From a virus (taxonomy: Duplodnaviria > Heunggongvirae > Uroviricota > Caudoviricetes), in IMG/VR virus record IMGVR_UViG_2563366883_000017: a stretch of 38,859 bases of DNA; one strand, written 5' to 3'. Positions 15,330 to 16,548 of the stretch are shown here, piece after piece (position 1 is the stretch's first letter; each line of letters begins with the position of its first letter). The notes under the pieces are model-generated. The model was not told where the DNA came from. It saw only the letters and a list, made by a program, of their open reading frames with translations, and did no database searches. The position numbers were made by a program, and so were the translations under genes.

Positions 15330-15367
15330 CAAAAATGAGACCCGTCGGGGATAGCCCTGCCGGGTCT
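15330..15367 (-). terminator. Rho-independent terminator for the minus-strand YeaR-like gene
   Basis: Plus-strand AGACCCG...CGGGTCT inverted repeat (15338-15367) with inner GC-rich pairing, preceded on the plus strand by CAAAAA, i.e. a U-run after the hairpin on the minus-strand transcript; 30 nt downstream of the gene stop. Confidence 0.55.
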
Positions 15368-15396
15368 GACTGTTAAAGCATTTTTAATATGATCAT

Positions 15397-15735
15397 CTAT
15401 TTTTTGGTGCTATAGACTTTTTCGCCCGAAAAGTCTGGAGCGACCCAAAAGTTAATATTAAACTGAGCATCATCGCTTAGTTCAACACGGTGCCAGTATT
15501 GTGGTGGGCTTGTTGCAAAAGCGCCAGCATTAATGACTACTTTTATCTCCGGTTCAGTAGCATTCTCATCAGTAAAACCATAATATGTTACAGTGCCTTC
15601 CATTACGCACAACTGCCCAAAAACACCTGCTGCTGTATTATGATGTGTTAATAACGCTGAAGGTACGTTCTCTTTTGTGAAGAACGGAGTTGAGCGTTTG
15701 ATTACCCAATCTTTAGGAATTCTCTTGTGTGTCAT
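15397..15735 (-). CDS. YeaR-like DUF1971 protein, 112 aa, stand-alone moron
   Basis: ATG 15733-15735 with GGAGGAGG 5 nt upstream; product RSTPFFTKENVPSALLTHHNTAAGVFGQLCVMEGTVTYYGFTDE...WHRVELSDDAQFNINFWVAPDF follows the recalled YeaR/DUF1971 pattern; own terminator and AT-rich upstream region. Confidence 0.55.
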   Translation of the reverse strand: MTHKRIPKDWVIKRSTPFFTKENVPSALLTHHNTAAGVFGQLCVMEGTVTYYGFTDENATEPEIKVVINAGAFATSPPQYWHRVELSDDAQFNINFWVAPDFSGEKVYSTKK

Positions 15736-16548
15736 AACCACCTCCTCCAAAACATGCATTAAAAATGCATCTTTTGGAGGGTTATGTCAAGCTGTTATGA
15801 AACACATAATTGATATGTTGATTAGAGGAGAAGATAGAATAAATATGGTTGTTTTTCGTATAACTATTTGTTTTACTTTTAGTTTATGCATTCTGTGTGT
15901 TAGGAATAAGTTATTAAAGTTTAATCAAAAAATCTCGATGTAGTCCACATAGATTACTGTTACTGAACCTTATTGTGTGTATTAGTTGTGTTCTGAAATT
16001 TCAGCTTAATTATTTATGATGTATTTTTTAACGATAAATATTTTCCCAGGATACCTTTACTGTGTATATAAATAAATTATATACGCATAAATAATGTAAA
16101 GGCGTCCTTTTAGATATATCTTATCAAATGTTAATGACTTGAGTGGGAAATATGATTCCAGCAACTTATCATGTGGCTACTTTATAAAAATAATGCCCAT
16201 ATAAAACAACAAGCGAAAAGGATTACGGATAAAAAAGGAGCGAGATGTGCGAACTTGTTATTTTCCATGTTTAACCACCTTAAATAATTGATGATGACGG
16301 GATGATTGCATCTGTAATGCTTTTATTGAAATGTTATGATAAAAAAGAACTTTTGCATAACATTAAAATGTAATTTATCTAATCGTTTTTAATAATAAGT
16401 GTCGTATTTCTATCCTTGTACCAGCTATTTGATATGTAGTGTTTGTTCATGCTATGTGGGGCTTTACACCATAGCCAGTTTATTTATACTTTATTCGTCA
16501 GCCTGAACAACTGGCATCTGCTGCGCTGCGCCATCGAGAGATTGAGAA

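Follow-up and report, generated by a model that had tools for sequence, protein, structure and literature searches.

A DUF1971 moron with a predicted NsrR operator on Rac-like lambdoid prophages of Escherichia coli

Cargo genes of phages (morons) can be wired to a regulator of the bacterial host, as exemplified by the Fur-controlled stx1 gene and by sodCI of Gifsy-2. The locus described here lies in a 38,859-nucleotide viral sequence (IMG/VR record IMGVR_UViG_2563366883_000017; "the window" below is this whole stretch). It follows the same plan, a promoter-gene-terminator cassette in a lambdoid cargo hotspot, predicted to answer to a stress regulator of the bacterium and to favour its survival in an animal, but here the regulator would be NsrR and the signal nitric oxide (NO). 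NsrR is an Rrf2-family [Fe-S] repressor that loses DNA binding on nitrosylation. The cassette encodes a DUF1971 protein of 112 amino acids and is probably an NsrR-repressed, NO-inducible moron of Rac-like lambdoid phages, its product a member of the clade that includes the Salmonella protein STM1808 and the solved structure 3DL3.

Among the described relatives is the Salmonella orthologue, located directly after nhaB-dsbB, which we take to be STM1808 from the LT2 gene order STM1806-STM1807-STM1808. STM1808 reportedly binds zinc, with H32 and H82 needed for zinc binding and for NO resistance, is said to have been placed under NsrR control by experiment in Salmonella, and reportedly supports growth under nitrosative stress and systemic infection. 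It is about 79% identical to the prophage product (113 versus 112 amino acids), and H32 and H82, said to be essential there, are invariant here. Both genes are monocistronic, with a predicted NsrR box over a -35/-10 promoter in the same 11-nt geometry. The Salmonella gene is core chromosomal, whereas the copy described here is carried by Rac-like phages and is accessory, in 8% of E. coli genomes; the box ends 27 nt from the ATG in Salmonella and 15 nt here, and a consensus -35 and a palindrome that reaches the ribosome-binding site are features of the prophage copy. In PMC7527575 the entry for STM1808 reads "putative cytoplasmic protein; NsrR regulon", and its role in virulence is referenced there to Karlinsey 2012.

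The Aliivibrio fischeri protein deposited as "TehB" (3DL3, NESG VfR98) is an orthologue-level relative, 81-83% identical to the prophage protein, with a root-mean-square deviation of 0.7-1.4 Å and a target-normalised template modelling (TM) score of up to 0.97. It is a structural-genomics entry without an assigned function and, unlike the prophage copy, the A. fischeri gene (locus L069) has no NsrR box within 200 nt. E. coli YeaR (3BB6) has the same Pfam family and fold, and is also NsrR-repressed. The yeaR gene differs in being a core chromosomal gene in an operon with yoaG (the two are 3 nt apart in K-12) and in having its box ~66 nt upstream of the ATG. Growth on nitrate, in which the NsrR regulon is de-repressed, induces it about as strongly as any gene, and it is NarL-activated (Lin et al. 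2007, as cited in the CFT073 study, PMC5320621).

A profile search, proposed by the first-pass annotation as the check on its DUF1971 assignment, matched the prophage protein to PF09313 (DUF1971) with E=2.3e-26 and 92 bits (cut-off 23.1 bits) over profile positions 1-80 of 80. The best match in the PDB is 3DL3 (E=3.5e-59), followed by YeaR (3BB6, E=1.6e-24) and then by the N-domain of Haemophilus influenzae TehB (3M70). A database search returned 462 relatives. Beyond Escherichia/Shigella, those of Salmonella, Klebsiella, Kluyvera, Vibrio, Aliivibrio and Shewanella are among the nearest, at 73-82% identity. The 13 orthologues aligned, which represent Enterobacterales, Vibrionales and Alteromonadales, are likewise 73-82% identical to the prophage protein, with values of 79-82% for enterobacterial, Vibrio and Shewanella orthologues, as compared with 41% (BLASTP) for K-12 YeaR. 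Approximately half of the positions, including H31, H32, C43, W81 and H82, are invariant across 14 aligned sequences, with H32 and H82 also kept in YeaR and in H. influenzae TehB. An AlphaFold model made from the 14-sequence alignment (predicted local distance difference test score 83.4) is a cupin-like, eight-stranded barrel. Query-normalised TM scores from Foldseek are 0.80-0.84 for 3DL3, 0.82-0.83 for 3BB6 and 0.76 for 3M70, and beyond DUF1971 Foldseek gives only weak matches, to cupin dioxygenases and JmjC proteins. Because identity to the 3DL3/STM1808 clade is far above that to YeaR, 3DL3 is the best solved match and about half of the positions are invariant, the protein is a member of this tightly conserved clade, a sister of YeaR, and is not YeaR itself. 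The YeaR-like label given earlier is therefore correct as to the family and mistaken as to the clade, and the locus has neither a yoaG partner nor a NarL-type site.

Database names suggest a different function. RefSeq sometimes names the product "TehB family protein", the title of 3DL3 is "tellurite resistance protein TehB", and the DUF1971 domain does form the N-terminus of H. influenzae TehB, so that the cassette might be read as a tellurite-resistance determinant, an idea also raised in the first-pass annotation that goes back to the "TehB" label only. The NCBIfam equivalog profile for TehB, however, scores 49 bits against a cut-off of 303 bits and aligns over profile positions 11-106 of 289. 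A score below the cut-off with coverage confined to the N-terminal part (the first 106 positions) indicates that this is not a TehB methyltransferase, and the NCBIfam/TehB comparison found no S-adenosylmethionine-methyltransferase domain, which would perform the chemistry, in the 112 amino acids. The label has been transferred through the common accessory domain, and the regulatory signal at the gene is the box of an NO sensor; a role in tellurite resistance is accordingly very hard to credit. The protein falls in PHROG 34268, annotated as of unknown function, and PADLOC matched it to no known defence protein.

The elements of the cassette and its upstream region are as follows.

15331-15366, minus strand: intrinsic terminator, with a hairpin at 15339-15366 and a U-tract at 15331-15338
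15397-15735, minus strand: DUF1971 coding sequence, 112 amino acids (MTHKR...STKK), stop codon TAG at 15397-15399
15741-15748, minus strand: Shine-Dalgarno sequence, visible in the DNA as GGAGGAGG and separated from the ATG by 5 nt
15744-15780, no strand assigned: extended palindrome of 17+17 nt, 94% complementary, which contains the NsrR box and reaches the ribosome-binding site
15751-15773, no strand assigned: predicted NsrR operator, which on the gene strand is the 11-1-11 palindrome AAGATGCATTT-T-TAATGCATGTT, 26.4 bits with the NsrR matrix
15762-15767, minus strand: candidate -10 element CATTTT, inside the box (positions 7-12) and 17 nt from the -35
15785-15790, minus strand: candidate -35 element TTGACA, the consensus, 11 nt upstream of the box
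15791-16548, no strand assigned: AT-rich spacer, 25-34% GC, that separates the promoter of the moron from the DUF1367-YbcO-DUF1133 (Q) block, of which DUF1367 starts at 16549

Read on the gene strand, the order is TTGACA (15790-15785), 11 nt, AAGATGCATTT-T-TAATGCATGTT (15773-15751), TT, GGAGGAGG, TGGTT and ATG. The longest mechanical open reading frame (ORF) begins further upstream, at 15759, and would give 120 amino acids. The start at 15735 is preferred, as 14 of 14 aligned orthologues begin M-[ST]-H and RefSeq WP_000149055.1 uses the 112-amino-acid form; the alternative ATG, which falls within the operator palindrome, lacks a ribosome-binding site. The terminator begins 30 nt past the stop codon. 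Its stem, GC-rich and bulged, reads GACCCGGCAGGG-CTAT-CCCCGACGGGTC on the minus strand and is followed by UCAUUUUUG; folding gave a minimum free energy of -19.4 kcal/mol with a modest z-score of -2.1. As the stem is not followed by a run of T on the plus strand, the terminator is oriented for the DUF1971 transcript. No minus-strand ORF follows the gene downstream. A consensus promoter and terminator scan called neither signal of the gene, the terminator being missed because its stem is bulged and the promoter because its -10 matches at only 3 of 6 positions; both were placed by eye, by folding and by comparison with orthologues. With its own predicted promoter and terminator, the cassette would be independent of the phage operons.

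The flanking genes on either side are on the plus strand, so that the DUF1971 gene is antisense to them and convergent with early-right transcription. Upstream are 813 bp (15736-16548) of 25-34% GC, as compared with ~50% in the DUF1367/YbcO/Q block. The stand-alone minus-strand gene between plus-strand blocks, with its own Shine-Dalgarno sequence and terminator, and the AT-rich region upstream (put at 790 bp) had been recognized in the first-pass annotation. Its end coordinate, 15760, in contrast, cuts through the regulatory region, which extends ~40 bp further, to ~15800.

The link to nitrosative stress drawn in that annotation holds, and the strongest evidence for it is a feature missed at the time, a near-consensus NsrR box on the promoter that is conserved both in orthologues and in phage alleles. 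The NsrR chromatin immunoprecipitation sequencing study of CFT073 (PMC5320621) provides, in its Table 4, 26 distinct sites from which a symmetrised weight matrix was made. With this matrix, the site at 15751-15773 scores 26.4 bits, the runner-up in the 38.9-kb window 11.7 bits, and the maxima of 200 shuffles have a mean of 12.7 and a highest value of 19.9 bits. For comparison, the training sites of ytfE, hcp, yeaR and hmp score 29.9, 23.4, 21.8 and 19.2 bits, respectively. Ranked against the 26 training sites, the box is second, outscored only by ytfE, and it differs from the perfect ytfE site AAGATGCATTTAAAATGCATCTT at 3 of 23 positions. The placement of the -35 and -10 elements predicts a transcription start near 15755, which would give a leader of ~20 nt.

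The same arrangement is found upstream of chromosomal orthologues, which were scanned in one genome per species (80 loci, each of up to 8.3 kb). Of the 52 Enterobacterales loci, 51 have a best match to the NsrR matrix of 19-29 bits in the 200 nt upstream of the gene; this match ends 15-27 nt from the ATG, and the best match elsewhere in each such locus is at 14 bits or less. In the sole exception (L010), the left half-site has lost 1 nt. The genera concerned are Kluyvera, Leclercia, Pantoea, Enterobacter, Citrobacter, Klebsiella, Raoultella, Salmonella, Yokenella, Phytobacter, Buttiauxella, Silvania and Pseudescherichia. The hexamer located exactly 11 nt upstream of the box matches TTGACA at a mean of 3.6 of 6 positions, as against 0.6-2.0 at other offsets (54 loci), and box positions 7-12 read TATTTT, TATATT or CATATT, with a mean match to TATAAT of 4.2 of 6. 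The sequence between these conserved elements diverges from clade to clade. Given this fixed geometry of box, -35 and -10, the core promoter and the box are one conserved unit, in which the operator lies over the -10 and the start site. A "tehB homolog" had been predicted as a member of the enterobacterial and Photobacterium NsrR regulons by Rodionov et al. (2005).

The promoter also bears on whether the gene is a plain paralogue of yeaR that duplicates the host function under yeaR-yoaG-like control, with activation by NarL in response to nitrate and repression by NsrR. The common Pfam family and fold, and the NsrR box of yeaR itself, are consistent with this. However, identity is 41% to YeaR as compared with 79-83% to the 3DL3/STM1808 clade, there is no yoaG-like gene downstream, where the terminator follows 30 nt past the stop, and the box lies over the promoter 15 nt from the ATG instead of ~66 nt upstream. 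No NarL 7-2-7 pattern with up to 3 mismatches is present in 12825-17721, including the promoter, although this was a pattern search only and weak sites could escape it. Counts of the NarL pattern are at chance level; those of the FNR pattern are at the upper edge of chance (48, with 35 expected), and no FNR-like match is near the promoter. An activator architecture of the yeaR type was rejected on these grounds. The absence of a nearby NarL or FNR site fits simple de-repression, unlike the NarL-activated yeaR promoter, and with a consensus -35 no activator would be needed. We consider a plain YeaR paralogue quite unlikely.

The reading that we prefer, an NsrR-repressed and NO-inducible moron, would work as follows. 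In the lysogen, holo-NsrR on the -10 and start region would keep the gene off. Nitrosylation of the NsrR cluster by NO would cause the repressor to leave, whereupon the promoter with its consensus -35 would fire, giving a short mRNA with the ~20-nt leader and a strong ribosome-binding site that would end at the terminator of the cassette. By analogy with STM1808, the protein would be a His-ligated metal-binding protein, reportedly with zinc, and would help cells to grow when exposed to nitrosative stress; both the metal binding and the protective effect are inferred from that likeness. As the clade is not represented in the E. coli chromosome, the prophage would then confer NO-inducible protection, a case of lysogenic conversion.

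Several points weigh against this reading. NsrR binding, the start site and induction by NO are predictions from sequence, and the -10 is weak (CATTTT, 3 of 6) and was not called by the consensus scan. The AT-rich surroundings could be silenced by H-NS. Repression may be looser in the commonest phage allele, of which the left half-site is degraded (AACACGCATTT, 19.7 bits). Most Vibrionaceae orthologues, two Photobacterium loci excepted, have no box within 200 nt, and a link to NsrR thus does not extend to the whole clade. The Salmonella orthologue is equated with STM1808 by gene order, the zinc and H32/H82 data are those reported for STM1808, and DUF1971 proteins are not known to have an assigned biochemical activity.

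The window is a Rac-like prophage that extends from intR to tfaR. It aligns with E. coli LD39-1 and has intR next to ttcA, then recET, kilR, sieB, a Q-like block, lysis genes, trkG and tfaR. As expected from its earlier description as prophage cargo, the DUF1971 gene is located between the replication and cargo region and the DUF1367-YbcO-Q block. The gene and its promoter are present in 458 of 5,426 complete E. coli genomes, always at ≥90% DNA identity, and a blastn search (word size 11) of the same 5,426 genomes found no diverged chromosomal copy. Four annotated contexts were inspected and all are Rac-like; two further copies, that of Shigella (L003) and that of the window itself, align over the same nin/Q block. 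To the right of the gene the neighbours are constant, namely the AT-rich spacer followed by DUF1367-YbcO-DUF1133 (Q family). To the left they vary, with three genes that match Hp1-Hp3 models in the window, QueH in CUVM3 and KilA-N in 98200 and in phage 666R9, with 98200 also having Hok/Gef. Isolated phages with the gene are vB_EcoS-666R9, 673R7 and 613R10. The module common to the window and vB_EcoS-666R9 (gene, spacer and Q block; 15400-18036) is 92% identical; as the similarity begins at the stop codon, at 15400, the terminator is outside it. Carriers come from human, poultry, pig and wastewater samples.

IMG/VR has 36 viral contigs with the gene, and the box is kept in all 35 for which upstream sequence is available. 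The distance from the end of the box to the ATG is 15 nt in 33 contigs, 14 nt in one (L111) and 25 nt in a divergent one (L118). Three classes of operator allele were found in the Escherichia-type contigs.

AAGATGCATTTTTAATGCATGTT: 26.7 bits, the type present in the window
AAGGTGCATTTATAATGCATGTT: about 25 bits
AACACGCATTTATAATGCATGTT: 19.7 bits, the commonest among these contigs

These three alleles, 15-37 nt upstream of the ATG, may set different basal levels of expression. The ribosome-binding site also varies among phage alleles (TGAGGAGG, TGATGAGG, GGGAGG), and some copies among L084-L119 (IMG/VR) and L003 (Shigella flexneri) have a weaker one, GATGAGG. In CUVM3 (L120, 9495-10723), an IS3-family insertion sequence is located in the AT-rich spacer ~155 bp upstream of the DUF1971 ATG, leaving the -35, the box and the gene intact.

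Such variation raises the question of whether the gene is silent baggage, captured once, kept by its linkage to the Q region, silenced by H-NS and of no benefit. The AT-rich flanks, the weakening of the box or of the ribosome-binding site (GATGAGG) in some alleles, and the IS3 element ~155 bp from the ATG in one strain would all be consistent with this. Nevertheless, the ORF is intact, the RefSeq product is the full protein in all 49 annotated entries listed, the exact protein is present on at least 1,000 contigs, and the box, -35 and ribosome-binding site are kept in 35 of 35 phage contigs with upstream sequence despite their divergence into three allele classes. With ORF and signals intact in three diverged alleles, silent baggage is unlikely, and we would give it little weight.

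The palindrome is longer than NsrR requires. RNA transcribed from the minus strand across 15715-15800 is predicted to fold with -30.2 kcal/mol and a z-score of -5.7, and in this fold both the ribosome-binding site and the AUG are paired. The outer stem, in the 15731-15800 region, pairs UCAUAAC with GUUAUGA, the latter including the start codon. The left arm of the palindrome would be missing from a transcript started at the predicted promoter, and an RNA started upstream would hide the ribosome-binding site and the AUG. The flanks of the palindrome co-vary between two phage alleles, CCTCCAA/TTGGAGG in one and CCTCAAA/TTTGAGG in the other, and in chromosomal orthologues the ribosome-binding site is outside the palindrome.

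These features invite the view that the cassette mainly serves the phage, with a promoter that opposes the early-right transcript, or NsrR acting as a roadblock, so that NO would tune late genes and the choice between lysis and lysogeny, and with the protein secondary. Consistent with this, in six contexts the gene stays joined to the spacer and the DUF1367-YbcO-Q block where the cargo on the left varies, it is convergent with early-right transcription, its palindrome is over-long with co-varying flanks, and the -30.2 kcal/mol hairpin would sequester the ribosome-binding site and AUG in transcripts that start upstream. Against it, the same arrangement of box and promoter is present at non-phage chromosomal orthologues in more than 50 species, so that the unit was clearly inherited with the gene and did not evolve for the phage. 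The protein is, moreover, under strong purifying selection (73-82% identity over the Enterobacterales, Vibrionales and Alteromonadales aligned), and morons are often convergent. A cassette of primary benefit to the phage therefore seems to us improbable.

More specifically, an NsrR operator on a phage could couple phage development to NO derived from the host, an outside chance and, in our estimate, a shade fainter than the general case. Here a de-repressed moron promoter would fire head-on into the early-right transcript bound for the Q antiterminator gene, and the over-long palindrome would act either as an NsrR roadblock on the DNA or as an RNA hairpin that silences translation of read-through transcripts. 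If so, NO in the inflamed gut would switch on the protective protein and delay or damp the late genes of the prophage, and the phage would encode an NO-sensing checkpoint borrowed from a host regulon.

Returning to the NsrR-regulated moron as such, the annotation of the gene, the solved structures of the family and the NsrR control of chromosomal orthologues predicted in 2005 are already known. New relative to the searchable literature, on the evidence of the genomes compared, are that E. coli would gain this clade only through Rac-like phages and that the phage copy appears to keep the host NsrR operator; no published phage-borne member of an NsrR regulon, and no description of this prophage copy, was found there. 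This DUF1971 clade is absent from K-12 and from over 90% of the complete genomes of E. coli. If the prophage copy works as the Salmonella orthologue is said to, Rac-like phages carry a ready-wired, NO-inducible protective gene from strain to strain. This would be a testable case of lysogenic conversion plugged into a host stress regulon and a phage-borne addition to the NsrR regulon. As K-12 lacks the gene, adding it there allows a gain of function to be measured, which provides a handle on the biochemistry of DUF1971.

The promoters of some orthologues have an additional element. A Fur-box-like 19-mer, for example GATAATGAGATTCATTATC, with matches at 13-17 of 19 positions, is located just upstream of the -35 at a fixed place, ~64-85 nt upstream of the ATG (L004-L025). 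It is present in the Kluyvera clade (Kluyvera, Leclercia, Pantoea, Enterobacter, Silvania, Buttiauxella and Pseudescherichia) and in two Photobacterium loci, and not in the Salmonella, Citrobacter and Klebsiella copies nor in the prophage copy, in which the promoter matches at 11 of 19 positions, equal to background. Of 3,000 background windows, 2% reached at least 13 matches and none reached 15. In Neptunomonas qingdaonensis (L077, 2966-6596; also L067 and L070), the DUF1971 gene follows a gene for a 2Fe-2S/4Fe-4S protein, and an NsrR-like box (22 bits) precedes the pair. An adjoining gene for a regulator of the Rrf2 family and sufB point away from each other, and the interval that separates them has two more boxes (21.5 and 17 bits). 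By its gene order, the Neptunomonas locus links the DUF1971 family to Fe-S cluster physiology outside enteric bacteria, and together the Fur box of the Kluyvera clade and the suf/Rrf2 linkage point towards metal and Fe-S physiology.

Small RNAs were sought with Rfam. Over the whole window, three matches on the plus strand exceed the gathering threshold: the RalA antitoxin small RNA (1557-1735, 225 bits), STnc100 just downstream of the Q-like gene (18725-18911, 87 bits) and IS009 at the right end (38618-38816, 221 bits), all consistent with a Rac-like prophage. Nothing on the DUF1971 gene or the spacer passed this threshold, and at a permissive threshold 14700-16650 gave no match with E<0.1, only mir-616 on the palindrome with a meaningless E of 0.12. 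The AT-rich spacer thus has no sign of a small RNA in the Rfam scans. Direct and inverted repeats in the spacer, the operator palindrome excepted, are only short pairs at chance level.

Directly to the left of the cassette, on the plus strand at 11779-14781, are three AT-rich genes (~33% GC) that encode 363, 415 and ~220 amino acids. They match the PADLOC candidate models Hp1, Hp2 and Hp3 (E=5e-41, 1e-10 and 4e-11, respectively) and PHROGs of unknown function, with no match in Pfam or NCBIfam, and look like a candidate three-gene anti-phage system that shares the cargo hotspot with the cassette. At this position, QueH, or KilA-N with Hok, is found in other Rac-like prophages. Between these genes and the cassette (14866-15197) is an unannotated element of ~300 bp that is present at 80-95% identity in 1,754 of the 5,426 complete E. 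coli genomes. Elsewhere in lambdoid prophages it is located ~200 bp upstream of hokD; here the hok gene is missing. Within it, a small plus-strand ORF (15093-15182) with a GTG start and an AGGGGG/AGGAGG ribosome-binding site encodes a hydrophobic product of 29 amino acids, MLVLKCALAIAAVMAIYCLAVVLMERLSD. Over four alleles it has 5 synonymous and 4 conservative changes, a pattern that suggests an unannotated small membrane protein. A Cys-rich ORF of 74 amino acids in another frame (14954-15178), with no Pfam, NCBIfam or PHROG match, was dropped in favour of it. The best sigma-70-like match in the region (16463-16490, plus strand; TTTACA-16 nt-TATACT, 10 of 12) is located where the AT-rich spacer ends on the right, ~60 bp short of the DUF1367-YbcO-Q block, and could drive transcription of the Q region independently of the early-right promoter.

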